Source: Cyanobacteriota bacterium
GTDB lineage: Bacteria > Cyanobacteriota > Cyanobacteriia > Thermostichales > Thermostichaceae
DNA: 64,000 nucleotides
Direction: 5' to 3'
NCBI GenBank assembly: GCA_033764955.1
Contig: JANRIL010000046.1
Coordinates: forward strand, 1-64,000
This document shows, piece after piece, positions 19,588-50,280 of this stretch. The position numbers were made by a program, and so were the translations under genes. How positions within the stretch are numbered: the stretch's first letter is position 1; every line of letters starts with the position of its first letter. Below the pieces are notes generated by a model. It had not been told where the DNA came from and ran no database searches. It worked only from the letters and a program-made list of their open reading frames with translations.

Positions 19588-20658
19588 TCATCTGACTTTG
19601 TCGCCCATATGTTTGTTACCCAACATTAGCAAGGAAGCATCGGAACCGACACATAGCACTGATACAAAGAGGATCCCTTGCAGCACGATAGCCACGGAAG
19701 AGGGCAACTTGGCAAACAATTGCAGGGCATCCCCCGCCGCCAGAATGCCCCCGATCAACAGGGACATGGGGATCACTCCCAGGAGACTATTTCCTGCTAA
19801 CCAGGCCACCAAAAAACCACTCAAGCCAAAACCATTAGAGATACCCACCTGCAGCCGCCCTTGGATCATGGCCGTTTCCGTAATCCCCGCCAACCCCGCC
19901 AGGGATCCCGCCAGGGCCATCACCAGCAGGACGTGAAACGGGTACTTGAGACCCACCTGCATGGCCAGGGGCGGATTGCTCTGCATGATGCGGAGGCTCA
20001 AGCCCCAACGACTCCAACGGTAGAGAACATAGAGGAGTAGCGCCATTCCCACGGCGATAAACAAGCCCCCATGGACACGGGATCCCGCTAGGAAGGGTAG
20101 CTTGGCCGTGGCTGGAAACTGGATCGTGGCTGGCCAGCCCAAATTGGCCGGATCCTTCCAGGGGCCATAGACGACAAAGCGCACCCATTGCATCCCCACA
20201 TAGTTGAGCATCAGGGTGCTGAGGGTTTCATTCACCGTCCACCTGGCTCGCAACCAACCGGGGATCCCGCCCCAGATCGCGCCCCCCACCGCACCCCCCA
20301 GCAGCACGAGGGGCAAGAGGAGCCAGCCGGGGCCATCGGGCCAGAGCAAGAGGATACCCGTACCGACCAAGGCTCCTAAATGCAGTTGTCCCTCCCCGCC
20401 GACAGAAATTAGGCCCAATTTGGCTGGTAGGGCTACGGCTAGGGCGCAGAAGAGAATTGGCGTTGTTTTGACCAGGGTTTCTGACCAGGCGTAGTCATCA
20501 CCAAAGGCCGCCTCCAGCATGGAGCTAAAAATGGTCAACGGTGACTGACCGATGGCCAGCAAAAACAGGCTGCTGAGGAGGATAAACACACTCAGGATGC
20601 CAAGGCCGGTGAGCAATGGGATCCGCAACGTCGATCCTGGGAGCCAGCGGGCGATCAT
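19588..20658 (-). CDS. Nucleoside/purine-type ABC permease
   Basis: ISVGGEGQ, VNETLSTLMLNY. Confidence 0.88.
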   Translation of the reverse strand: MIARWLPGSTLRIPLLTGLGILSVFILLSSLFLLAIGQSPLTIFSSMLEAAFGDDYAWSETLVKTTPILFCALAVALPAKLGLISVGGEGQLHLGALVGTGILLLWPDGPGWLLLPLVLLGGAVGGAIWGGIPGWLRARWTVNETLSTLMLNYVGMQWVRFVVYGPWKDPANLGWPATIQFPATAKLPFLAGSRVHGGLFIAVGMALLLYVLYRWSRWGLSLRIMQSNPPLAMQVGLKYPFHVLLVMALAGSLAGLAGITETAMIQGRLQVGISNGFGLSGFLVAWLAGNSLLGVIPMSLLIGGILAAGDALQLFAKLPSSVAIVLQGILFVSVLCVGSDASLLMLGNKHMGDKVR

Positions 20659-22163
20659 CCGGCCACCCCTGCCATCCAGCGACCCAACTGCTGTCGACTG
20701 GCCTGGGGCGTCGCTTGAATGCCGACAATGTGCCCTTTGGAGATCACGGCCACGCGGTGGGCATAGCGCATCAAATCATCCAGCTCCTCCGAAATCCAGA
20801 GGACGGCGGATCCCTGCTGGGCGTGGCGAAAGAGATGCTCATACACCGCCTGGGTCGCTGCCGCATCCAACCCCATGGTGGGGTAACAGGCCACAATCAA
20901 GAGGGGATCCCCAGACAACTCGCGGGCGATGATCAGCTTTTGCAGGTTGCCCCCCGAGAGCTGGCTGGCCACCTTGTGGGGATGGGGCGGACGCACATCA
21001 AAATCATGCAAGAGCACAGTCGCACGGTTGATCTGCCGTCGCCACCGGGGCCAAAAGGGCAAGGTTCGCACCTGATGTAGGGCCAGATTCGTTGCCAAGT
21101 CCAGATCCGGAGCCACCCCATGCTGCAACGGGTTTTCGGGAATGTAGGCCACCTGCGACCGCACCAGGGATCCCGGATGTAAGGGTTGACCCTGCACGAG
21201 AATCTCTCCGGCATGGAGAGACCGGATCCCGGCTAGGGCTTCGGCCAAAAGCGGTTGTCCATTGCCTGCGACCCCCGCCAAGCCTAAAATTTCCCCTGGC
21301 TGAATCTCCAGGTTAATGTCGCTGAGGCTCATTCCCGTGGCGGGATCCTGTAGATAAAGGCCGCGCACCTGGAGCAACGGGGATCCCGTGTCAAGGGGGC
21401 TAGTCCTGGGGAGTGCCGCCGTGACTTCATGACCCATCATCATCTCAATCAAGTCCGCTTTGAGCATTGGGGAAAGGGAGCCCCGATCAGGATTGGACAG
21501 ATCCCGTTGGTGGACGACTTTGCCCGCCCGCATCACCACCACCCGATCCGCACAGGCGGCCACATCCTCCAGTTTGTGGGTGATCAGCACTACGGCCCGT
21601 CCCTGTTGAGCCAGTTGCCGGATCAAGCCCCAGAGGCGTTCCGCTTCGGTGGGGGTGAGGACAGACGTCGGCTCATCCAGGATGATGCAACGAGCCTCCA
21701 GGTTGAGCACTTTGATCAGCTCCAGCAGTTGCTGCTGCCCCACGGCCAACTGATCCACCCGTAACCCCGGATCCAAATCGGGAGCCAGATCGCGCAACCG
21801 GGCCAGCACCTTGGCCTGGAGATGGTGGTTGCCCCAGTGCCACCACGGGCTCTTGGGGTAGGCCAGCAGCAGATTCTCCAGCACCGTCAAGGCTGGGATC
21901 AGATTGAACTGTTGAAACACCATGCCGATGCCGTGGGCGATGGCGGCACGGGGGGAGTGCATCACCATCGGCTGACCATCGATCTCAATCTGCCCTTGGT
22001 CGAGGGTATAGAACCCGTAGAGGATCTTCATCAGGGTGCTTTTGCCCGCGCCGTTTTCCCCCAGCAGGGCCAAGACCTGGCCAGGGCGAATCTCCAAATC
22101 CACCCCATCGTTGGCCAGGGTGGAGCCGAAGCGTTTGTGGATCCCGGTGAGGTGAATGTGCAT
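20655..22163 (-). CDS. CUT2-family double-domain ABC ATPase
   Basis: LLGENGAGKST, DEPT, LSGGNLQK. Confidence 0.92.
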   Translation of the reverse strand: MHIHLTGIHKRFGSTLANDGVDLEIRPGQVLALLGENGAGKSTLMKILYGFYTLDQGQIEIDGQPMVMHSPRAAIAHGIGMVFQQFNLIPALTVLENLLLAYPKSPWWHWGNHHLQAKVLARLRDLAPDLDPGLRVDQLAVGQQQLLELIKVLNLEARCIILDEPTSVLTPTEAERLWGLIRQLAQQGRAVVLITHKLEDVAACADRVVVMRAGKVVHQRDLSNPDRGSLSPMLKADLIEMMMGHEVTAALPRTSPLDTGSPLLQVRGLYLQDPATGMSLSDINLEIQPGEILGLAGVAGNGQPLLAEALAGIRSLHAGEILVQGQPLHPGSLVRSQVAYIPENPLQHGVAPDLDLATNLALHQVRTLPFWPRWRRQINRATVLLHDFDVRPPHPHKVASQLSGGNLQKLIIARELSGDPLLIVACYPTMGLDAAATQAVYEHLFRHAQQGSAVLWISEELDDLMRYAHRVAVISKGHIVGIQATPQASRQQLGRWMAGVAG

Positions 22164-22170
22164 GGTCTCA

Positions 22171-22563
22171 CTAACGGTGAGCGACTAGATCCACTTCTAC
22201 CCGTGGCCCACGCACCAAGCTGGTGACGCCAACACAGGTGCGGGCGGGCAGTTTGCCCTCAGGGAAATAGCTTTTGTAGACCTGATTAAAGGCATAAAAA
22301 TCCTCTTCCAGGTGGGTGAGATACACCCCCACTCGCAGGACGTTGTCAAAACCCAGCCCCAATTGGGAGAGAACCGTTTTCAGGTGTTGAAAGACCAAAT
22401 GGGTTTGGGCCTCGATGCCCTCAGGAATGGGAGCGGCGGGATCCCTGGGATCGAGGGGGGTTTGGCCGGTGAGGAACACCCAACCATCGATCTCGGCGGC
22501 ATGACAAAAGGGGCCGGTGGGTTGGGGTGCCCCATCCACCATATAAAAGGTCGGTAGGGTCAT
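22171..22563 (-). CDS. RidA/YjgF family protein
   Basis: FLTGQ, FNQVY, PARTCVGV, VEVDL. Confidence 0.9.
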   Translation of the reverse strand: MTLPTFYMVDGAPQPTGPFCHAAEIDGWVFLTGQTPLDPRDPAAPIPEGIEAQTHLVFQHLKTVLSQLGLGFDNVLRVGVYLTHLEEDFYAFNQVYKSYFPEGKLPARTCVGVTSLVRGPRVEVDLVAHR

Positions 22564-22596
22564 AGGGTTTGGTTGAATGGGTGCAGAACGAGGTGC

Positions 22597-23382
22597 TTAG
22601 AGTTGGCTGAGTCCATCCAGGAGCGACTGGGATTGGGTGAGGAAGCCAAACAGCAGTTTGACGTTGTAGTAGGTGGCCTCCAGGCAAAAGGCGGGGGAGG
22701 TGGTGGCCGTACAGTCCTGGAGCAAGATGGTGTCGTAGCCCAAAAAGTGGGCATCCTGCAGGGTGGTGAGCACACACTGGTCGGCATTGACGCCACCGAT
22801 AAAGAGGGTGGTCACCCCCAGATTGCGCAAAATGCTGTCCAGGTCGGTATCCCAAAAGCCGCTGAAGCGGTGCTTGGTAACGTGAATGTCCTGGTCGTTG
22901 GGGTGCAGCTCGTCCACAATGGCCGCGCCCCAGCCGCCTTTTTCCAGGACTTTCGCCCCGGTGGTGGGGGTGGGTTCCCCCAGACCAACTCGGATCCCGT
23001 CGGGGCTGTGGGCATGGAGTAGCGTTGGGCTGATGTTGAGCAGGTCGGGACGCACGCCCCAATTCACCCAAATCACCGGGATCCCGTGCTGGCGAAAGGC
23101 GGGCACGAGCTGGCGGAGAGGCTCAATCGGGGCCCGATCCGGCGTGTAGTCGACGCCCACTACATCCAACCAGCCACCGGGACTGCAAAAATCATTCTGC
23201 ATATCCACGATCAGCAGGGCCGACTTGGTGGCATCCACCACAATCCGCTGCGGATCCGCCGCCACACTCATCCGGCGCAGCGGACGGGACGGGCGGGACA
23301 TATCCACTTCTTCTGGGGTGACCCGCCAGGGGTTGGCCGGGGATCCCATCTGGCAGACGCCTTCTTGGCGAACGTACATCAC
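22597..23382 (-). CDS. Cysteine hydrolase (isochorismatase family, RutB/BiuH-like amidohydrolase)
   Basis: Catalytic triad motifs VDMQNDF, KHRFSGF, NADQCV. Confidence 0.88.
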   Translation of the reverse strand: MMYVRQEGVCQMGSPANPWRVTPEEVDMSRPSRPLRRMSVAADPQRIVVDATKSALLIVDMQNDFCSPGGWLDVVGVDYTPDRAPIEPLRQLVPAFRQHGIPVIWVNWGVRPDLLNISPTLLHAHSPDGIRVGLGEPTPTTGAKVLEKGGWGAAIVDELHPNDQDIHVTKHRFSGFWDTDLDSILRNLGVTTLFIGGVNADQCVLTTLQDAHFLGYDTILLQDCTATTSPAFCLEATYYNVKLLFGFLTQSQSLLDGLSQL

Positions 23383-23420
23383 GAACCTCTCCTAAACAAC
23401 CACCACCGAGGGATCCCGAC

Positions 23421-24533
23421 TTAACTGGCGGAGCCGATCACACCCTTGACCAAAAAGTTCATCGACTCCAGGGTTTCCATGGGCAATTTCACGCCACTGG
23501 CCACCACCTCGCTGCCGTCTTGTTTGAGGATGGGGCCAGACCAGACGACCTTTGCCCCGGAGAGGATCTGCTCTTTGACGGCCATCACTTTGGCTTGCAC
23601 ATCACTGGGAACGGCAGGCCCAAAGGGATCCAGCACCACGTCGCCACCCTTGAGGGTACCCCGGACAAACTCTGGTTTCCAGGTATCCCCCTGGATCTGC
23701 TTGACCAGATCCACCATCATCGGCCCCCAGTTCCAGGAGGCACCCGTGAGCCATGCCTTGGGCGCAAACTCGGTCACGTTCACATCCTTACCCACCACGT
23801 AGGCTCCCCGTCGTTCGGCGGTTTGGGCAAAGGTCAGGGGTGAATCGACTTGGCCCGCCAGGACATCGGCCCCCCCATCCAACAGGGCATTGGCCACTTC
23901 CGCTTCTTTGGGGGGATCCAACCAGGCTCCCGTCCAGACCACGGTGGTGGTGGCCTCAGGATTGATGCTTTGGGCACCCATGGTGAAGGCGTTGATGGTG
24001 CGCAGCACTTGGGGAATTTGGAAGGCTCCCAAAAAGCCCAATTTACCCGTTTTACTCAGGGATCCCGCCACCATCCCTGCCAAATAGATGGCATCGTCGC
24101 TATCGGCCCAGTAGGTGCCCACATTGGCTCCCAACTTCAGACCCCCGGCATGGAGGAAACTCACTTCGGGATATTTCTGCCCCACGGTGATGGCGTGATC
24201 CAAATAGCCATAGCTAGTGGCAAAAATGATGCCGTGATCATCGCGGATGAGGCGTTCCATCACCCGTTCCACCTCGGCACTTTCGGGAATGTTGTCAAAA
24301 TAGGTGGTTTCCACGCCCAGGGTCTTTTCCACGTATTGCCGACCCAAATCCATGGAGTAGTTGTAGCCATAGTCGCTCTGGGGGCCAACGTAGATGTAGC
24401 CAATCTTTTTGGTATTCACCTGAGCCTGAGCCCTCTGCCATGAACTGGCCGAGAGCATGGCCCCACCCGCCATCAACCCCGCTTGCAAAATCTGGCGACG
24501 GCTGAACCCTGCTGCCAATAAACGTCTGGACAT
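23421..24533 (-). CDS. BMP-family ABC substrate-binding protein, Tat signal
   Basis: SRRQIL; YVGPQSDYGYN, FATSYGY, NAFTMGA. Confidence 0.9.
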   Translation of the reverse strand: MSRRLLAAGFSRRQILQAGLMAGGAMLSASSWQRAQAQVNTKKIGYIYVGPQSDYGYNYSMDLGRQYVEKTLGVETTYFDNIPESAEVERVMERLIRDDHGIIFATSYGYLDHAITVGQKYPEVSFLHAGGLKLGANVGTYWADSDDAIYLAGMVAGSLSKTGKLGFLGAFQIPQVLRTINAFTMGAQSINPEATTTVVWTGAWLDPPKEAEVANALLDGGADVLAGQVDSPLTFAQTAERRGAYVVGKDVNVTEFAPKAWLTGASWNWGPMMVDLVKQIQGDTWKPEFVRGTLKGGDVVLDPFGPAVPSDVQAKVMAVKEQILSGAKVVWSGPILKQDGSEVVASGVKLPMETLESMNFLVKGVIGSAS

Positions 24534-24606
24534 GACATGTTCCTCAATACGGGACAATCAACGCAACATTCTGGACTAAAGACCGGAGCGAGCCAGCATG
24601 AGGTCA

Positions 24607-25605
24607 TCAGCCCGTGCTGCCAAAGACCCCTTTCAACCCCTGGGGCATCCCCCCCCGTTGGGCCGTGGCCGAACTGACAACCAACACCGCCAGCGACAAG
24701 AGGTAGGGCAGTGTGGCCAAGAGATAGGACGACACCTCCACCCCCATCGATTGCAGCCGCAGGTACAACGCCTCGGATCCACCAAACAGTAGGGCTGCCG
24801 GACAGGCCCAAAAGGGATTCCAGCGGGCCACGATCACCAAGCCCACCGCCACCAGACCTCGTCCAGCGGTCATGTTTTCCGCCCAGGTGAGGGTATAGTC
24901 CACCGACAGCGCTGCCCCACCCAGGCCTGAGAGCAAACCCCCGATGCCGATACCCTGCATCTGCACCCACCAGGGTCGGATCCCCATGCTGCGGGAAGCC
25001 GGAATCGATTCCCCTACCGCCCGCCAGATCAATCCCGTGTGGGTGCCATAGACCAAGACCCCGATGACGGGCACCAGCAGCAGCGACAGCAGGATAGTCG
25101 GGGTCAACTCCCCCACCACCGCGCCCAATCCACTGATCTTTTGCCCCACGTAGGCTCGCCCCCAGTAGGCACTGAGGCCGGATCCCAGCACCCACACCGC
25201 GACACCGCTGGCGATGGCATTGGTGCGTAAACCCACGCAGAGCAGCATGTGCAAGCTCGACAGGGCCAGCCCGGCCAGGGATCCCGCCAGCAAGCCCAGC
25301 CAGGGGTTTTGGCTGATCACCGTGACGGCAAAACCAACGCAGGCCCCCAGCAGCATTTGCCCTTCCACCCCCAAATTGATCACCCCCGTCAGTTGGGTCA
25401 GGGTTTCCCCCACCACCACAAACAGAATGGGAGAGGCACTACGCAGCGTGGCCCACAACCAACCGGAGGTCATCTCTGGGGGAGCACTGACCAGTAGGGC
25501 GACCGCTACCACCAGAACGACCCCCAGGGAGCGCCACCGCCTCCGAAACGGCATTAACGATGGGATCACGAAGGCCGCTCCTACGCCCAGGGAATGTCCC
25601 AGCAT
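24607..25605 (-). CDS. Nucleoside/purine-type ABC permease
   Basis: GVINLGVEGQM, RAVGE, TAGRG, TLPYL; ATG at 25605 avoids overlap with gntR. Confidence 0.85.
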   Translation of the reverse strand: MLGHSLGVGAAFVIPSLMPFRRRWRSLGVVLVVAVALLVSAPPEMTSGWLWATLRSASPILFVVVGETLTQLTGVINLGVEGQMLLGACVGFAVTVISQNPWLGLLAGSLAGLALSSLHMLLCVGLRTNAIASGVAVWVLGSGLSAYWGRAYVGQKISGLGAVVGELTPTILLSLLLVPVIGVLVYGTHTGLIWRAVGESIPASRSMGIRPWWVQMQGIGIGGLLSGLGGAALSVDYTLTWAENMTAGRGLVAVGLVIVARWNPFWACPAALLFGGSEALYLRLQSMGVEVSSYLLATLPYLLSLAVLVVSSATAQRGGMPQGLKGVFGSTG

Positions 25606-25652
25606 CTTAGGGATCCCGCCGGAAAACATCCGTAGCTGGCGATACACAATAT

Positions 25653-25664
25653 AGGATATATCCT
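25653..25664. promoter_or_regulatory. Candidate GntR operator
   Basis: Perfect palindrome AGGATATATCCT between the divergent permease and gntR. Confidence 0.55.
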
Positions 25665-25728
25665 GTAGGCGATTTGCATTTCCCCATCCACAGCGGATGA
25701 TGGAAGCATCGCTTCGCCGTATCCTCCC

Positions 25729-26403
25729 ATGACTGCTGTCAAACCTGTGCTTGCTTCCTTGGCCGGGATCCCGCGCACCACCCAAGCCACCGTCACCGAG
25801 CAGTTGCGGCGAGCTATTTTATCGGGGGCATTGCCAGGGGGATCCCGACTGACCCAGGCGGAACTGGCCAACGCCTTTCAGGTCAGCATTACCCCAGTGC
25901 GCGAGGCCCTACGCGAACTGAGCACCCAAGGGTTGATCGAGCTGGATGCCTTTCGCTGTGCGGTTGTCCATACACCGACATTGAAAGAACTGGAAGAAAT
26001 TTATGAACTGCGGCAGGTGTTGATTCCCTACACCGTGGAGCATGGGATCGCCAAAATCTCACCGGAGGAACTCCGGCAAGCCGAGACGCTGCTGACCACC
26101 ATGGAGCGGGAAACGGATCAATCGCTGTGGGTGGATCTGAATCGCCAATTTCACAATCTCCTGGAGCAGGCCGTGGACAACTCCCATGTGCAAGCCACCC
26201 TGCGCCGCCTCTCCGATTTTTCGGCAATTTACGTCAATTTGTCCTTTGCCAAGCAACCCCTGCAAAAGGAAGACTCGGAGCGGGAACACCGTCAAATCCT
26301 GCAAGCCTATCAGGATCGGGATCCCGTGTTGGCCACCCAATTAACCTTGGCTCACGTCAGCGCTACATTGGTGGCCGCGAGACAGGTATTTAGGCAGGAG
26401 TAA
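25729..26403 (+). CDS. GntR/FCD family transcriptional regulator
   Basis: LRRAILSGALPGGSRL, VSITPVREAL, NRQFH, EHRQI. Confidence 0.93.
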   Translation: MTAVKPVLASLAGIPRTTQATVTEQLRRAILSGALPGGSRLTQAELANAFQVSITPVREALRELSTQGLIELDAFRCAVVHTPTLKELEEIYELRQVLIPYTVEHGIAKISPEELRQAETLLTTMERETDQSLWVDLNRQFHNLLEQAVDNSHVQATLRRLSDFSAIYVNLSFAKQPLQKEDSEREHRQILQAYQDRDPVLATQLTLAHVSATLVAARQVFRQE

Positions 26404-26476
26404 GGTGTCTCGTCAATTCAATGCCCTCATGGCCAGCAGTGATAGCTCACCCTTTTAAGCAGATTGTTAGGCTTGC

Positions 26477-27586
26477 ATGGAGAAATTTGGTGCTATGGAA
26501 ATAGAAGGTTTAAAAGCGCTGAACGTTTTCGTTGATTCATCAATATTTATCGGCAAAAACTACAGATATGAGCACCCTTCGTTTGTTGCTCTCAAGGATG
26601 CTGTATCGGCAGGGCGAGCCAATTTGCTGATTACGGATATAACCATAGAGGAAGTGAAGGCGCATATAGATAACGATGTTAGCGAGTCTTCGCAAGCTCT
26701 TAAGAAAGTTCATGGTGGGGTAAAGATTCTTAGAAACATTGCTAAGCTAAGTGATTCAGCCATATTCAATGATATTGATCGCGCATCCGTCGGTGAGGAG
26801 CTTTATAAGCAGTTTGAACAGTTTTTGACAGATGCCAGGACAGTCATCGTTTCAGTATCGGAGGCCAACACGCGGTCTGTCTTTGATTGCTACTTCAAGC
26901 GTGCTGCGCCATTTGGCGAAGGAAAAAAGAAGAGCGATTTTCCTGATGCATTTGCATTATCGGCATTGAACGAATGGGCGGAATCAGAGCAGGAGGATGT
27001 ATTCGTTGTAAGCCAAGATTCAGACATGAATGGAATCGAAGTCGATTTTCCGTGTTTGTCAGCACTTAGCTCACTGGAAGAGTTTCTGGGCAAAGTTACT
27101 TCATACTTTGAGGAACTCGCTCCGCTAGCTCAGCAGTTGTTGGAAGACAATTTTGGCCAAATTGCGGATATTCTTGAAGAAAGATTTCAGTGGCTTGGCT
27201 TCGTATTGGCGGATCAAGATGGTGATGTGAATGAAACTAGAGTCACTGAGGTCGGAGAGATTTCTGCCTACCTGATTTCGCTAACCCCCGGCTCAAATGG
27301 CGAGCCAGCAGAAGCGCGATTTGAGTTGACTACAACCATCGCATATGAAGCGGACGTGTCATATGACAACCTAGAAACGGCGAGTTATGATAGCGAGGAT
27401 AAGGTGTTTATCCCTTGGGAGACTGTCGAGCAAACAGTTGAAAGCTCTGAAATAGTTCAGGCTAACCTAAGATTTACGTTTAATATGACCGAACCTCGCA
27501 ATCAAGAAATTAAAGAACTGGATTTGCACACGCCAACGGACGTTTCGGTTTCTACGGAAGAAAACGATGGCTGGCCTTACAAGTAA
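26477..27586 (+). CDS. Cassette 1: PIN-like domain protein (DUF4935-type) with acidic C-terminal domain
   Basis: VFVDSSIF, ITIEEV, APF..GKKKSDFPDAF, VVSQDSD acidic PIN motifs. Confidence 0.75.
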   Translation: MEKFGAMEIEGLKALNVFVDSSIFIGKNYRYEHPSFVALKDAVSAGRANLLITDITIEEVKAHIDNDVSESSQALKKVHGGVKILRNIAKLSDSAIFNDIDRASVGEELYKQFEQFLTDARTVIVSVSEANTRSVFDCYFKRAAPFGEGKKKSDFPDAFALSALNEWAESEQEDVFVVSQDSDMNGIEVDFPCLSALSSLEEFLGKVTSYFEELAPLAQQLLEDNFGQIADILEERFQWLGFVLADQDGDVNETRVTEVGEISAYLISLTPGSNGEPAEARFELTTTIAYEADVSYDNLETASYDSEDKVFIPWETVEQTVESSEIVQANLRFTFNMTEPRNQEIKELDLHTPTDVSVSTEENDGWPYK

Positions 27587-27589
27587 TTG

Positions 27590-27661
27590 GCTTAACACGG
27601 CACTGCACCTGACCGCTTTTCCACTACGCTCCAAAGCGGCAGGTGAGTTTAGTCGTTGGGC
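27590..27661 (+). other. attC site 1 (72 bp)
   Basis: GCTTAAC-N5-ACT[G]CAC-CTG[A]CCGCTTT-loop-AAAGCGGCAG-GTGAGT-N6-GTTGGGC: canonical boxes with two unpaired bases. Confidence 0.93.
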
Positions 27662-27682
27662 TGCTTCGGGAATTGAAGAGTT

Positions 27683-29059
27683 ATGAGCTTAAAGAAAATA
27701 GAGCTAAAGGGGTTGCGAGGATTCGCAACAGTCCAATATCTAGAATTTGCTATTCCTAATGGGGATCCCGGAAGTGGAATTACTACCTTAGTAGGACCTA
27801 ATAATGGAGGGAAATCCACTGTAATTGAAGCAATCCGTGCATTATCGCTAAGGGACCCACCTAGCTTTACTGTAGGCAAACGAAACCAGAAAGCGGGAGA
27901 TCGAGTTAAAATAACCGTCTTCAATGAGTTAGCGCAAACCAAAGAACTGTGCACTATTGATGCGGGTGGTAGCGAAACTCACTGGGTTGTTAACAATGAT
28001 CCCCTTCCCCCTGGAAGTGTATTCGTTTTGCCATCAAGACGCTACTTTAATCCCCTCTTTGGTAAAGCTTCCTCCGAACGGCAGTCCTACATTATTTCGT
28101 ACGGTCTACCACAAACACGAGGCTCTGTAATTGACCACTTCGCTTCTAGGTTGTTTCAAGTTCAAAAGAATCGAACTGCGTTCGATTCTGTCTTAGGTAA
28201 AGTGTTAAGCCCCGTACCTAATTGGACAATTGACCAATCAGATGGAGGTCAGTATTTTCTCAAGTTCGATTTTGGGGGTTTCTATCATAACAGTGACGGA
28301 CTTGGAGAAGGTCTTGTTAGCTTATTCTTTATAATTGACGCTTTATATGATTCCAAGCCCAATGACATAATCGTCATTGATGAGCCTGAGCTTTCTTTAC
28401 ATCCGTCTTTTCAAAGGAAACTCGCCTCCTTGCTTGTTGATTATGCTTCAAACAGGCAGATTATTATTGCTACTCATTCACCCTATTTTGTTGATTTTCA
28501 TGCAATAACTAATGGGGCAAAAATTGCCCGTATATATTCCGATGATTTCAATTCCACTATAAGAATGCTCAGTGAAGATTCTGTTAGTAGGATCAAAGGC
28601 TTTCTAAATAACTCATTTAATCCACACGTTCTTGGGCTTGATGCCCGCGAAGTGTTCTTTCTTGAAGAAAGAATAATTCTTGTGGAAGGTCAAGAAGATG
28701 TGGTTTTCTACAAGGATATTTCTTCTCAGTTGGATAAACAGCTTAATGGTAATTTCTTTGGCTGGGGTGTTGGAGGAGCGCATAACATGGAAATAATAGC
28801 TGCCTTATTACAAGATTTAGGGTTTAAGAAGGTCGTCGGGATTCTAGATGAAGATAAAAAAGAGTTGATACCAGAATTAAAAGGGAAGTTCCCTGATTAC
28901 AATTTCTTCAACATTCCTGCAAAAGATGTTCGTACTAAGCCTGCAATTGCTGCGAAAGACTCTGTCATAGGTTTGATTGATAAGTCGGGGGTGCTTAAAC
29001 TTGAGTATAAAGATGAGGTTAATGGACTGTTCGATCAAATTAACGCTAAACTTGCATAA
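27683..29059 (+). CDS. Cassette 2: OLD-family ATP-dependent nuclease (ABC/AAA ATPase plus TOPRIM)
   Basis: GPNNGGKST, LGEG, IDEPELSLHP, ATHSPY, LVEGQED, ILDED. Confidence 0.88.
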   Translation: MSLKKIELKGLRGFATVQYLEFAIPNGDPGSGITTLVGPNNGGKSTVIEAIRALSLRDPPSFTVGKRNQKAGDRVKITVFNELAQTKELCTIDAGGSETHWVVNNDPLPPGSVFVLPSRRYFNPLFGKASSERQSYIISYGLPQTRGSVIDHFASRLFQVQKNRTAFDSVLGKVLSPVPNWTIDQSDGGQYFLKFDFGGFYHNSDGLGEGLVSLFFIIDALYDSKPNDIIVIDEPELSLHPSFQRKLASLLVDYASNRQIIIATHSPYFVDFHAITNGAKIARIYSDDFNSTIRMLSEDSVSRIKGFLNNSFNPHVLGLDAREVFFLEERIILVEGQEDVVFYKDISSQLDKQLNGNFFGWGVGGAHNMEIIAALLQDLGFKKVVGILDEDKKELIPELKGKFPDYNFFNIPAKDVRTKPAIAAKDSVIGLIDKSGVLKLEYKDEVNGLFDQINAKLA

Positions 29060-29064
29060 GCACA

Positions 29065-29151
29065 GCCCAACAACCCTGGTGACGCGGACTCGCAAGATTG
29101 ATCTACTATAGCGGCACGTGGCTTTGGAGCTGCTGACCAAGACCGTTAGCC
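29065..29151 (+). other. attC site 2 (87 bp)
   Basis: GCCCAAC...GCGG[A]CTC pairing with GAGCTGC...TGACCA-N5-GTTAGCC; L box slightly degenerate. Confidence 0.8.
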
Positions 29152-29163
29152 CAGAAGAGACGC

Positions 29164-29943
29164 ATGATTGAATCGTTGCCGACTTCGTGGCGGGACTTGC
29201 AAGAGCGAGTTGCCCGAATTCTCAACGAGTGTGGCATCGATACTTCCGTCGAGAAGCAAGTCACCCTGGCGCGAGGTAGAGCCAAAATAGATGTCTGGGC
29301 TTATGATGCTTCATCTGTGCCTCCGCAGACCTACATAATCGAGTGCAAGCGATGGTTCGAACCCGTGCCTCAAACGGTTGTCCACGCATTTCGCAGCGTT
29401 GTCGGAGACTGCGGCGCTAATTGGGGTGCTATCGTGTCGTGCAACGGTTTCCAAAGCGGTGCTTACGAGGCGGCCCAATACTCCAACGTACGGCTTCTCA
29501 CTTGGTATGACTTTCTTGCTCTGTTTGAAACGGCGTGGTTCGATCGCTATTTCTGCCGCATCGTTGCCGAAGCGTCAGAGCCCCTCATCGAGTACACCGA
29601 GACGATCAATTCTCGCATCTTCCGAAAGGCGGATCTTCTCTCAAAAGGGCAACACGAGGAGTTCAAACGTCTTCGCTCTGTCCACTTTTCTCTCGCTGCC
29701 ATCTGCATGATGATGCGGGTGCAGGCAAATGGGGCTCTGCGTCTCGTTCGTGGCGACCATGATTCCATCATGCTCGATATCCCCTTGCGCCAAGGTATGC
29801 GAGGGGCAGCCTCGGAACTACTTGGTACGTTACCCAATTCAATCCTCGATGCCGACTCGTACCGAATTCTGCTGTCTGCGATAATCGAAGAGGTAGAGAA
29901 TGCCATCGCGTCGTTTGATCATCTGTTCGGCGAAAGGGCGTAA
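29164..29943 (+). CDS. Cassette 3: Mrr-type (PD-(D/E)xK) restriction endonuclease
   Basis: LQERVARIL, KIDVWA, IIECKRW, IVSCNGFQSGA. Confidence 0.85.
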   Translation: MIESLPTSWRDLQERVARILNECGIDTSVEKQVTLARGRAKIDVWAYDASSVPPQTYIIECKRWFEPVPQTVVHAFRSVVGDCGANWGAIVSCNGFQSGAYEAAQYSNVRLLTWYDFLALFETAWFDRYFCRIVAEASEPLIEYTETINSRIFRKADLLSKGQHEEFKRLRSVHFSLAAICMMMRVQANGALRLVRGDHDSIMLDIPLRQGMRGAASELLGTLPNSILDADSYRILLSAIIEEVENAIASFDHLFGERA

Positions 29944-29947
29944 AAGG

Positions 29948-30036
29948 GGCTAACCAAGCGTTGGAGCAGACTCGCGATAGCGTCCTGCGGTATGGTGAGG
30001 TTGTTGGCTGTTAGCTGCTGAGCTTTTTCGTTAACC
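29948..30036 (+). other. attC site 3 (89 bp)
   Basis: GGCTAAC-N5-GTTGGAG-CAG[A]CT...AGCTG-CTGAGC-N6-GTTAACC. Confidence 0.8.
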
Positions 30037-30418
30037 CTTACGATCTAAAACAGTGCTCAACGCCTTACGGCATCACAGGCAAAAGCACGCATCTAGGTAC
30101 AGACAGACATAACATAAATAGTGGAGCGGCCTGCTCAACCCCTAAGGGCATTGGCAGACCCAAAGATATTAGGGATAAGAAACCAGCCGTTTTCTCAAAC
30201 AAACTATGCCTGACTCCCTGGGAGGGTACCAGCCAAGCGGTCCCTTGAAGGGATAGCCCCCACGCTCGTGATAGATTTTGATGATTGAGCAACTTCATAG
30301 GGAAGATCCGCTGGCTAAAGTCCGGTTTACGTTTAGCAGGGATAGGAACTTTAGTTTGCTTTCCAGCCATCTCAATATCATCTAAATCCCCCGATCTAAA
30401 CAAATTAAGCCAATCGCT

Positions 30419-31036
30419 TTGGATACTTTCCCAAACATGCTTAAGACCGATCGCTCTTGCCTGAGCCTGCTCCGCTGTTGTCGATGGTTAGTCTGTTGGG
30501 GACTGATTCTTGGTTTGACCGGCTTAGCATGGGAAATCAACCTGGGTCGCCCAGCCCATGCCCAGCCCCCTCCGGTTGAAGCCGCAGCAAGGCAGGTCAT
30601 TAGTCGAGAAGAGGCGGAGCAACGGCTAGCGGTGATTGCTCAGGCAATGGAGTCGATTCGGTTGTGTAACCGCCCTGGCTGTCGCTTTTTGCAAATTAAT
30701 AGCCAGGTTCATCCCCAGGATGCTGAGCAACCCTCCCCCATCTACACAGGCGAGATCAACGCCATCATCGATCGCCCCGCCGCTACCCTCGACAAAGCCC
30801 ATTACCAGCTTGAATTTCGGGAGGGGCGCTGGCGTCTGTTGGGTGGAGAGGAGCTATCGGATGTTTCCTCCTTCTTTTTTGACGGAGATGAATATGAAGT
30901 ATTTAGTTCCTACAGTGGGCGTACCCGCATCGAAAAGCTGCAAAACGCCAGTCCAAATCTTCGCATTGGCTATGGAGCACTCTACTTTCAAATCATGCAG
31001 GCGGGGGTGGAAAAGCTCGCTCCCGACCCCTCCTAA
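30419..31036 (+). CDS. Hypothetical exported protein
   Basis: Signal-like hydrophobic stretch ending PAHA; no family recognised. Confidence 0.6.
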   Translation: MDTFPNMLKTDRSCLSLLRCCRWLVCWGLILGLTGLAWEINLGRPAHAQPPPVEAAARQVISREEAEQRLAVIAQAMESIRLCNRPGCRFLQINSQVHPQDAEQPSPIYTGEINAIIDRPAATLDKAHYQLEFREGRWRLLGGEELSDVSSFFFDGDEYEVFSSYSGRTRIEKLQNASPNLRIGYGALYFQIMQAGVEKLAPDPS

Positions 31037-49106: not shown

Positions 49107-49523
49107 ATGCGGGTGGATCCAGACCAGGATTGGATCGAATTGGTGGAGCGAGAGCGCATCAACTTGGCGGATGTGGTGGCGTGGACACGAATGGCAGATG
49201 GATCGTTGGTGTGGCTAGAACGGGGGAATCAGGATGCTGGGTTGCGGCACATTATCAGCCGACATGAACGAGACTTTGCTGAATTTGGGATCCCGGCTGG
49301 AGAGTTGTCAGAGTTTTTGATAGAGATGGTGCGAAACGGTGAGCCGGTGATGATGCAGGGGACTCGGCAAGTTTATCGAGTTTTCTATCGTGGCCAAGAT
49401 TGGCATGTGGCCGTGACGGTCGGCGATAATGGGTTCATCGTGGGAGCCAATCCCGTAGGTCAACGCAAACTCAGACAGTTGTTGAGGAAGCAAAATGCCC
49501 CAACTCGTCCGACTACAAGCTGA
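49107..49523 (+). CDS. Putative polymorphic-toxin nuclease domain (former MuF C-terminus)
   Basis: VWLERG...AGLRHI..RH and VTVGDNGFIVGANP motifs; position just after the MuF remnant. Confidence 0.6.
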   Translation: MRVDPDQDWIELVERERINLADVVAWTRMADGSLVWLERGNQDAGLRHIISRHERDFAEFGIPAGELSEFLIEMVRNGEPVMMQGTRQVYRVFYRGQDWHVAVTVGDNGFIVGANPVGQRKLRQLLRKQNAPTRPTTS

Positions 49524-49821
49524 TTACTTTATTGAACCCATCTTTTTGGGTGCGGAAGATTTTGACGACACTGATTATGTTAACGCTTCTGATTTGCCCC
49601 TCAGCCCAGGGCTAACTGAGGCTATTGATGCTTGGCAGCAAGCCCTTGATATCACTTTTGATCATCAATTTGGCCGCAACAGCGGCTTCAAAACCGATGA
49701 GGAGCGGGTAGCTTTCCACACCCGTGGCCTGGATCTAGCTCGTCGCCTGCAATCAGAGCTGGGATCCGAGTACGAGGTCTACTACGAGCGAGAGCCGGTG
49801 TTTGCCCAGGCTAGCTCGTAA
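49495..49821 (+). CDS. Putative immunity protein
   Basis: Acidic 108-aa ORF overlapping the toxin end; ADY...PI, LPLS..L...W, G..LARRLQ.EL pattern. Confidence 0.6.
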   Translation: MPQLVRLQADYFIEPIFLGAEDFDDTDYVNASDLPLSPGLTEAIDAWQQALDITFDHQFGRNSGFKTDEERVAFHTRGLDLARRLQSELGSEYEVYYEREPVFAQASS

Positions 49822-50280
49822 ATGGTCACGCTCATCACCACTGTCACTGACACCCCCCTCCGCCAACTTTTTTGACCGGATCGACAATACCCTACGCAAC
49901 CCCCAGCCCCTCTATAAGGCCTGGGCTAACCACCTCGAATCCCGCGTCGTCACCGCCTTCAAACAAGAAACCTCTCCCGCAGGCCAAGCATGGCCGGAAC
50001 TCAAGCCTGTTACTATCCGCCGCAAAAGCCGTAACTCTCGCAGCATCAACAAAAAGCTGCGCGATACTGGCACTCTCTACGACTCGATAGTCGCTCGTGC
50101 CTTACCTGATGGCGCGGTAATCGGCACCAATCAGCGAGTGGGATCCTACAGCCTAGGAGCCATCCACCAATACGGCGCACCCAGACGGAGGATCCCACCA
50201 CGTCCGTTTCTGCCTGTGGACACTCAAAGCAACTTACTACCCAGGAGGTTGACGAGATAATCCGATTGACTTAGGAATAG
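49822..50280 (+). pseudogene. Mu gpG-like virion morphogenesis gene, frameshifted
   Basis: F....SPAG..WPELKP.T, LRDTGTL..SI, GTN, AIHQYG, IPPRPFL; ATG 49822 is out of frame by an extra T in a T6 run; tail also disrupted. Confidence 0.8.

Follow-up and report, generated by a model that had tools for sequence, protein, structure and literature searches.

We examined a 64,000-nucleotide (nt) stretch of the cyanobacterial assembly GCA_033764955.1 (contig JANRIL010000046.1, positions 1 to 64,000 of the forward strand; hereafter, the window), in which the segment 26466–30036 consists of three integron gene cassettes, each ending in an attC site and accompanied by no integrase. All three cassette genes are on the plus strand and encode predicted nucleases of different families, PIN_12, OLD, and Mrr_cat. 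The array opens with the GTTRRRY core of the first cassette (26466–26472, plus strand), which is the left recombination junction; the same 7-mer opens the 76%-identical cassette of locus L055. This core is followed by the gene for a 363-aa PIN_12 (DUF4935) nuclease (26495–27586; the longest open reading frame, ORF, begins at 26477) and by attC1 (27590–27661, 72 nt). The second cassette encodes a compact, 458-aa single-chain nuclease of the OLD family that combines an ABC ATPase with a TOPRIM domain (27683–29059) and ends in attC2 (29065–29151, 87 nt). The third cassette encodes a 259-aa protein with an N-terminal Mrr_cat nuclease domain of the PD-(D/E)XK type and a helical C-terminal region (29164–29943), followed by attC3 (29948–30036, 89 nt), the core of which (30030–30036) is the right junction; all attC sites are on the plus strand. 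The flanks are occupied by host genes on the same strand, on the left a GntR-family regulator with Pfam GntR and FCD domains (25729–26403) and on the right a gene with no assigned family that is kept in relatives (30419–31036). An earlier note on this DNA had already described three different nucleases from their motifs, and both the ORFs and the PIN_12, ABC-ATPase/TOPRIM, and Mrr_cat assignments are confirmed here. The note was also right that neither a methyltransferase nor an antitoxin lies alongside the cassette genes; a helicase and a reverse transcriptase are likewise missing there, and between the three genes there is no additional gene, only opposite-strand shadow ORFs.

Because an attC site follows each gene and the integrase gene intI is absent from the contig carrying the array (C34; TIGR02249 search) but present elsewhere in the genome, as two full-length genes on contigs C9 and C38, the element 26466–30036 is an attC-site cluster that lacks an integrase (CALIN), not a complete integron. 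The left flank of the array is unlike the attI regions of the integrons L001 and L002. Evidence that the attC sites are genuine comes from covariation among 23 aligned sites, the three from the window included, that were gathered by a heuristic scan, with pairing counted on a structure drawn by hand from one of the 23 sequences. In this alignment, 91.8% of the cells are paired and 69 cells are changed on both sides, a result as high as in none of 500 shuffles, whereas control alignments that had been slid are 27–49% paired. The window sites show R''/R' cores, L boxes, and extrahelical bases (these sites belonged to the training set of the attC model); in attC1, 15 of the 17 model pairs are Watson-Crick, and its bottom strand folds as the expected hairpin. 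The array is demonstrably foreign in composition: the GC content of the three genes is 0.44, 0.40, and 0.54, respectively, against 0.54–0.57 in the neighbours, and GGATCC occurs once in the 3.57-kb array where about 11 copies are expected from the genome mean of 3.1 per kb (P = 2e-4).

The protein encoded by the first cassette scores 100 bits against Pfam PIN_12 (cut-off 32), and all 72 aligned family members match this model. Among its 115 homologs, the closest are 363 aa long, and therefore we place the start at the ATG at 26495, from which residues are numbered. The acidic residues D14, E53, D151, D175, and D177 are all present and are kept in 70, 72, 72, 72, and 67 of the 72 aligned sequences, respectively. 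In the AlphaFold model (pLDDT 89), a PIN domain of the VapC type (residues ~1–205; fold matches with Z up to 11.7) is followed by a distinct alpha/beta domain (~207–350). An aspartate of this second domain, D299, is invariant across the alignment, and an acidic composition of the domain is a feature of the whole family (median 23% D+E; 35 D/E versus 8 K/R in the C-terminal 158 residues here). The fold of this domain produces only middling, NTF2/cystatin-like matches (Z about 6.4–7.1), which assign it to no family, and a similarity to pP_pnuc_2 in the Atlas (score 0.81, TM 0.57) falls below the bar and is a weak lead. By sequence, the protein has no meaningful match in the PDB and no match in phage GenBank; one viral protein matches the entire fold (E 1.6e-14). 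PIN_12/DUF4935 has been described as a family of proteins whose length is about 350 aa and whose C-terminal region is alpha/beta, usually encoded monocistronically and of undefined function at that time (PMC5499597); the window protein agrees with it in both length and C-terminal fold. The closest homolog in a named genome, that of L055 (76% identity), is the first cassette after an integrase, and both of its boundary words are common to the window cassette. With dN/dS of about 0.12 relative to this homolog, the PIN gene is under purifying selection. Another PIN_12 cassette, with a longer product (467 aa), is present in the same integron (L055:9044–10447). None of the plasmid regions with PIN homologs that we read carried an integron annotation. 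Seven distant PIN_12 homologs (L100, L118, L119, L120, L129, L217, and L345) are directly followed by an AbiH-family gene, which suggests that PIN_12 and AbiH form a two-gene system in gammaproteobacteria.

In the product of the second cassette, Walker A (K44), Walker B (D233/E234), H265, and the TOPRIM residues E335, D339, and D389 are invariant in all 62 aligned sequences; the second aspartate of the DxD motif (D391) is D here and in 20 of the 62 sequences and N in 40. Among PDB entries, the T. scotoductus class 1 OLD is the best relative (6P74; sequence E 7.6e-17; fold E 1.3e-16, TM 0.52); the window protein is 19% identical to it and 70 residues shorter (458 versus 528 aa). Proteins of this family at about 460 aa form at least 2163 clusters and often have defence genes next to them. 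Class 1 OLDs have a dimerisation domain inserted in the ATPase; at ~125–200, the structure model of the window protein shows an insert that is short, consisting of three helices and strands. Models of known defence systems cover the protein in part: the match to the PADLOC Old model spans 28% of that model, a 443-position retron model is matched at positions 169–376 only, and the AriAB (PARIS) model at positions 317–497 of 694; PARIS comprises two genes or a fused AriAB of about 690 positions, and a single gene is present here. Gabija (class 2 OLD) was considered and rejected given that there is no adjacent gajB helicase, as was the Retron I-B ATPase-TOPRIM (class 3 OLD), with neither a reverse transcriptase nor a noncoding RNA adjacent. 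No UvrD-like helicase or reverse transcriptase is encoded in the window flanks, and no GajB or retron reverse transcriptase is found among 115 neighbours of homologs. Because such a partner is missing, the protein belongs by context to class 1, as that class is defined in PMC10568477. Compact OLD homologs (L148, L153, L180, and L184) directly adjoin type I-C cas genes or form part of type I restriction-modification (RM) operons, in the latter case after hsdS and, in L184, between hsdS and hsdR.

The third protein scores 49.9 bits against Mrr_cat (cut-off 21), an assignment with which the Atlas agrees (0.97). The domain is N-terminal (residues 8–120), and the catalytic residues D43, E60, and K62 are invariant in 78 of 78 aligned sequences out of 162 homologs. 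Thus, each of the three proteins retains its catalytic residues, which its homologs conserve, and the possibility of degenerate catalytic sites, raised in the earlier note, did not materialize. In Mrr of the E. coli type, an Mrr_N domain precedes the nuclease; unlike such proteins, the window protein has its nuclease at the N-terminus, with no Mrr_N match ahead of it and no second domain above the cut-off. It resembles Mrr_cat and type IV restriction nucleases in its PD-(D/E)XK core and in the absence of a cognate methyltransferase, and a nuclease of this kind has to be modification-dependent, limited in its sites, or triggered. The three plasmid regions with Mrr homologs that we read all lack an annotated methyltransferase within 6 kb; in the vicinity of these homologs are an ABC three-component system, AbiE genes, and, on a phage-like plasmid, a GNAT toxin pair.

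Another line of evidence on the function of these genes comes from the neighbourhoods of their homologs, in which neighbours were counted as defence genes if matched by PADLOC at E ≤ 1e-25 (nearest neighbours came from 79 of the 80 PIN loci, and an ORF was called in 50 of the 55 OLD loci). For OLD, 8 of the 75 nearest neighbours were dropped (OLD gene fragments and one duplicate locus), three second neighbours were promoted, and four more were dropped; the control set of 95 genes was drawn from the window and, in relatives, from housekeeping loci. Matches were produced by 16 of the 70 nearest neighbours of OLD and 10 of the 45 second neighbours, compared to 5 of the 95 control genes, all of these partial and covering at most 35% of the model (Fisher p 0.0015 for nearest neighbours against control). 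Loci on viral contigs included 6 for Mrr, 16 for PIN, and 7 near-full-length ones for OLD, several of them in the variable positions of P2-like phages. In particular, homologs occur as lone genes in prophages: the PIN homolog L306 abuts the portal gene, and OLD homologs lie four genes from the portal gene (L228), between baseplate and tail genes (L226), and beside DUF4238 (L227), whereas the Mrr homolog L221 is located between the integrase and gpU. In P2-like phages, the portal-proximal locus is described as a defence hotspot (PMC9122126). Two of the three families were found together in none of 281 loci (106 PIN, 68 OLD, and 9 Mrr matches).

The genome as a whole offers a baseline against which the coincidence of three nucleases can be gauged. 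The attC model identifies 71 sites in 39 clusters, 22 of which are single sites and nine of which contain at least three, compared to 0–22 sites in each of 20 family relatives (the model was trained on this genome). Cassettes are unusually dispersed in this genome relative to the family: it holds about 70 attC sites together with two full intI genes and a number of intI fragments, and it is a natural case of cassettes spreading outside integrons. Apart from the array, 39 ORFs of at least 100 aa end at an attC site; 37 were scanned, two host-like ones being left out, and 12 of these are, in our reading of the Pfam names, of defence or toxin type, including 5 nucleases. These 12 are three PIN proteins, NYN, BsoBI, two C5 methyltransferases, Fic, nSTAND1, AAA_15/21, mCpol, and an S8 protease; the remainder are metabolic or have no known function. 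At this rate, the chance that all three genes of an array are of defence or toxin type is about 0.03, and because nine clusters hold three sites or more, the coincidence is modest, that is, only mildly unusual. The complete integron on contig C38 (54053–62500; L002, L381, and L382) itself includes two defence candidates, the mCpol-domain cassette and the S8-protease cassette with a probable ATPase gene upstream.

Taken together, these observations argue, with a probability that we put at roughly 0.7, for a CALIN of three independently acquired, stand-alone nuclease genes from families that act as anti-phage effectors. The cassette anatomy, foreign composition, intact catalytic residues, lack of partner genes, and integrases elsewhere in the genome are directly observed; that the genes are independent and probably anti-phage follows from the homologs, which never co-occur and sit alone near defence genes and in P2-like prophage loci. 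That at least one of the three protects against some phage when expressed is very probable; protection by all three falls slightly short of an even bet, and sufficient expression in this host for the array to protect can be proposed only tentatively. Several results weigh against this interpretation. The neighbour enrichment is not significant for PIN, with 17 matches among 147 nearest neighbours (Fisher 0.11 raw), the p value decreasing to 0.001 only after dropping three matches that we judged to be unreliable (two of low coverage and one probable housekeeping ATPase); the PIN matches are not independent, including five AbiH pairs and three TIR proteins of Psychrobacter; and the control represents housekeeping genes rather than accessory DNA. 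Hence the enrichment near defence genes envisaged in the earlier note holds for OLD but not for raw PIN counts. Furthermore, the majority of homologs lack a neighbouring defence gene and do not lie in cassettes: an attC site follows the gene in 5 of the 80 PIN loci and 5 of the 55 OLD loci by the model (4 of 73 and 5 of 47 by a heuristic check, with 0 of 73 and 0 of 39 in controls). The PADLOC check proposed in the note turned out negative, no PADLOC or NCBIfam model fitting any of the three proteins over most of its length; the PIN protein has no PADLOC match at E ≤ 0.1 and no NCBIfam match, and that of Mrr is weak. Of the "modular anti-phage array" of the note, the stand-alone defence-type nuclease genes in integron cassettes stand, whereas modularity applies only in the sense of stacking, not of co-evolution.

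How the array might operate can be outlined conditionally. An IntI encoded at another locus would have placed the cassettes, in trans, at an intergenic GTT core by the attG route. Each nuclease would then work alone, harmless until infection and triggered by, or specific for, phage nucleic acids or proteins. The PIN_12 protein would be a VapC-fold RNase without an antitoxin that cleaves RNA during infection, its acidic C-terminal domain probably serving to restrain or activate it; in the OLD protein, phage DNA would be nicked, or RNA cut, by a two-metal TOPRIM nuclease gated by the ABC ATPase; and the Mrr_cat protein would cut modified or phage-specific DNA, or else be triggered by infection. 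Expression would come from read-through from gntR, or from promoters beyond the reach of our scan.

Expression is the point at which the strongest rival enters, namely, that the array is silent, ageing cargo, of defence type by origin, promoterless at a dead-end site, neither expressed nor mobile. This has a substantial, if lesser, chance of being correct. No sigma-70-like promoter was detected ahead of the array (the scan yields 4 sites versus 5.4 by chance), which also counts against the preferred interpretation, and the left junction has no attI. Moreover, attC2 and attC3, with 3 and 4 mismatches over the 17 model pairs, are among the most mismatched of the 23 aligned sites, most of the other 20 having 0–2, and their minimum-energy structure is not the attC hairpin. 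The PIN12 cassette Brc24 gave no protection when placed in the third position of an array, according to bioRxiv 10.1101/2024.07.02.601719, a published case of position-dependent silencing; this result and the mismatches likewise weigh against the preferred interpretation. Against silence speak the three full-length ORFs with all catalytic residues, the well-formed attC1, and the gntR gene, which is co-oriented with the cassettes and from which transcription could read through into them, nothing resembling a terminator having been found between its stop codon and the array. It is unlikely that the proteins act mainly on plasmids or other incoming DNA, or have roles outside defence, such as RNA turnover, DNA repair, or orphan toxicity. 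The class 1 OLDs, which are nonspecific nucleases in vitro with few shown to stop phages (PMC10568477), the location of some homologs among housekeeping genes (for example, ruvA/ruvB in L152), and the similarity of the PIN fold to VapC toxins and RNA-decay PIN proteins are all compatible with such roles. They are harder to reconcile with the patchy distribution in 400 genomes of the phylum (PIN in 11, OLD and Mrr in none at the thresholds used), with homologs in variable loci of prophages and inside type I RM and cas operons, and with the absence of an antitoxin. Finally, the adjacency and shared orientation of the genes could reflect a single, co-evolved three-component defence system; each gene having its own attC site and a different GC content, and none of the 281 loci holding homologs of two of them, we reject this explanation as highly improbable.

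A different kind of alternative is raised by the sequence to the right of the array, where an intact CRISPR repeat of type I-B (MYXAN type), with no cas gene nearby, begins 16 nt past attC3 (30053–30088, minus strand). It is identical in 32 of 36 positions to the repeat at the I-B cas operon on contig C42 and scores 32 bits against Rfam CRISPR-DR33 (E 4e-4, below the gathering score of 39). A 42-nt spacer-like stretch (30089–30130, no strand assigned) separates it from a degenerate second repeat (30131–30166, minus strand; 5 mismatches over a 22-nt window at the conserved end), which scores higher than any of 3000 random positions. On the left, a doubtful degenerate third repeat (26414–26450, minus strand) has P = 0.115 by alignment score and is equalled by 155 of 4000 stretches by position weight matrix (PWM), the second test having been designed after the first. 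Conceivably, then, the array landed inside a spacer belonging to a type I-B mini-array of three repeats, and it might be transcribed in antisense or come under the control of the host I-B Cascade. The repeats on the right, the cognate cas operon, and the 38-nt spacing at which removal of the array places the weak left repeat-like stretch (a related array ranges over 33–39) favour this scenario, which we nevertheless regard as improbable. The left repeat reaches only marginal scores in the two tests (P = 0.115 and 0.04), and its best-matching part is explained by an unrelated recurring motif; the array-free site was found neither in relatives (gntR and the right-flank gene are adjacent in 0 of 30) nor in sequencing run X1, which covers the left flank only, diverges at the gntR stop, and contains no read join spanning the array. 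No CRISPR repeat of this kind lies beside any homolog locus. Words common to the spacer-like stretch and the cas locus, or the array, are no longer than 8 nt, and the stretch has no target in its own genome beyond chance 11-mers or in phages (a plasmid match at E = 2 was rejected). It also contains a segment resembling an attC left arm (~30107–30130, plus strand), with a score of 13.5, close to those of the attC1 and attC2 arms and reached by 5 of 4000 random stretches; the stretch is either a spacer acquired from the end of a cassette or the remnant of a fourth attC site.

The motif that overlaps the left repeat-like stretch is about 22 nt long (26404–26425, minus strand; PWM score 22.3, the best genome-wide after the 8 training sites) and is specific to this genome, with 9 copies here, 1 match in 30 relatives, and 0–1 in shuffles. 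Of the eight other copies (C11:33788(-), C27:112546(-), C27:18905(+), C4:15557(+), C23:45268(-), C7:103493(-), C38:64780(+), and C11:52280(-)), five coincide with the exact 3' end of a modelled attC site and at least two follow, by eye, attC-like sequence; the attC sites that it directly follows are lone ones, and often a convergent host gene has its stop codon just before the motif. Such a motif may serve the integrase as a favoured target, or it may mark where a small mobile element ends. A more far-reaching scenario, which we consider quite unlikely, is that the integrase prefers this motif and CRISPR spacer DNA as landing sites, that the array sits in an I-B mini-array that still makes guide RNAs, with one spacer derived from an attC arm, and that the acidic PIN_12 domain and the compact OLD are phage sensors. 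If true, the landing-site and mini-array scenario would connect CRISPR with how integron defence cassettes are controlled or targeted.

Several observations concern the surroundings. Searches for the exact repeat in metagenome contigs produced no match, and the intergenic region to the right of the array is unmatched in 29 other genomes of the order. Between the I-B cas genes on C42, just upstream of a cas4-cas1 fusion, there is a partial repeat-like sequence (C42:2314–2333), possibly a regulatory single repeat unit. The ABC-transporter/GntR cluster to the left of the array (19588–26403) is in part 92% identical over 227 nt in the relative G014 and 95–99% identical in run X1, where other sequence follows the gntR stop; this cluster may itself be mobile between lineages. 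Elsewhere in the window (49107–50260), three short same-strand ORFs (138, 108, and 152 aa), none matched by PADLOC, look accessory.

The preferred reading, a CALIN of independent anti-phage nucleases, finds parallels in known systems. Experiments have shown that CALINs and single attC sites lacking an integrase (SALINs) arise by cassette insertion at attG sites, as reported in bioRxiv 10.1101/2022.09.11.507474; the array is similar in being a small attC cluster without a nearby integrase, with GTT cores at both junctions and integrases elsewhere, and differs in that its target adjoins an isolated CRISPR repeat pair and that we infer the insertion route. Regulatory CRISPR mini-arrays (bioRxiv 10.1101/2023.03.03.530964) have so far been found at cas loci and match promoters. 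The pair beside the array shares with them the combination of one intact and one degenerate repeat, belonging to a system that the genome has, with a 42-nt spacer between the two, and departs from those producing crlRNA in lying outside any cas locus, the operon being on C42, and in that no promoter target was found. Titles and the starts of abstracts yielded no report of cassette insertion into a CRISPR spacer, subscription papers lying outside that search. The closest counterpart of the first cassette is Brc24 (Cosus), an integron cassette with a PIN12 domain that is reported to give complete protection from T7; the substitutions T12A, D14A, and D96A lower this protection more than 1e5-fold (bioRxiv 10.1101/2024.07.02.601719). 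Like Brc24, the window PIN is a single-gene cassette with a PIN12 domain and the first catalytic aspartate at position 14, and Cosus homologs are reported at attG-like chromosomal sites; where Brc24 has T12 and D96, the window protein has F12 and R96, compared by position number only, not by alignment. By analogy, it is plausible that the window PIN works like Cosus, and it permits a direct test of the role of the acidic C-terminal domain. DS-3 is described as another one-protein PIN defence without an antitoxin (PMC13092281). The second cassette resembles the class 1 OLDs (P2 Old, T. scotoductus, and Vc OLD) in having the ABC ATPase and TOPRIM domain on one chain encoded by a single gene; a chromosomal class 1 OLD is reported to nick DNA and block phage replication (PMC12392090), and the compact ~460-aa family bears on the open question of broad defence by solo class 1 OLDs. 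With a PIN12 cassette conferring catalysis-dependent T7 defence and solo class 1 OLDs already published, the novelty implied by the earlier note shrinks: we hold, with good confidence, that the array is a new example of a known strategy, for which anti-phage integron cassettes have been validated, extending cassette-borne defence to this genome and offering three candidates that are small, self-contained, and simple to clone, and whose families go uncalled by the PADLOC and NCBIfam models now in use.

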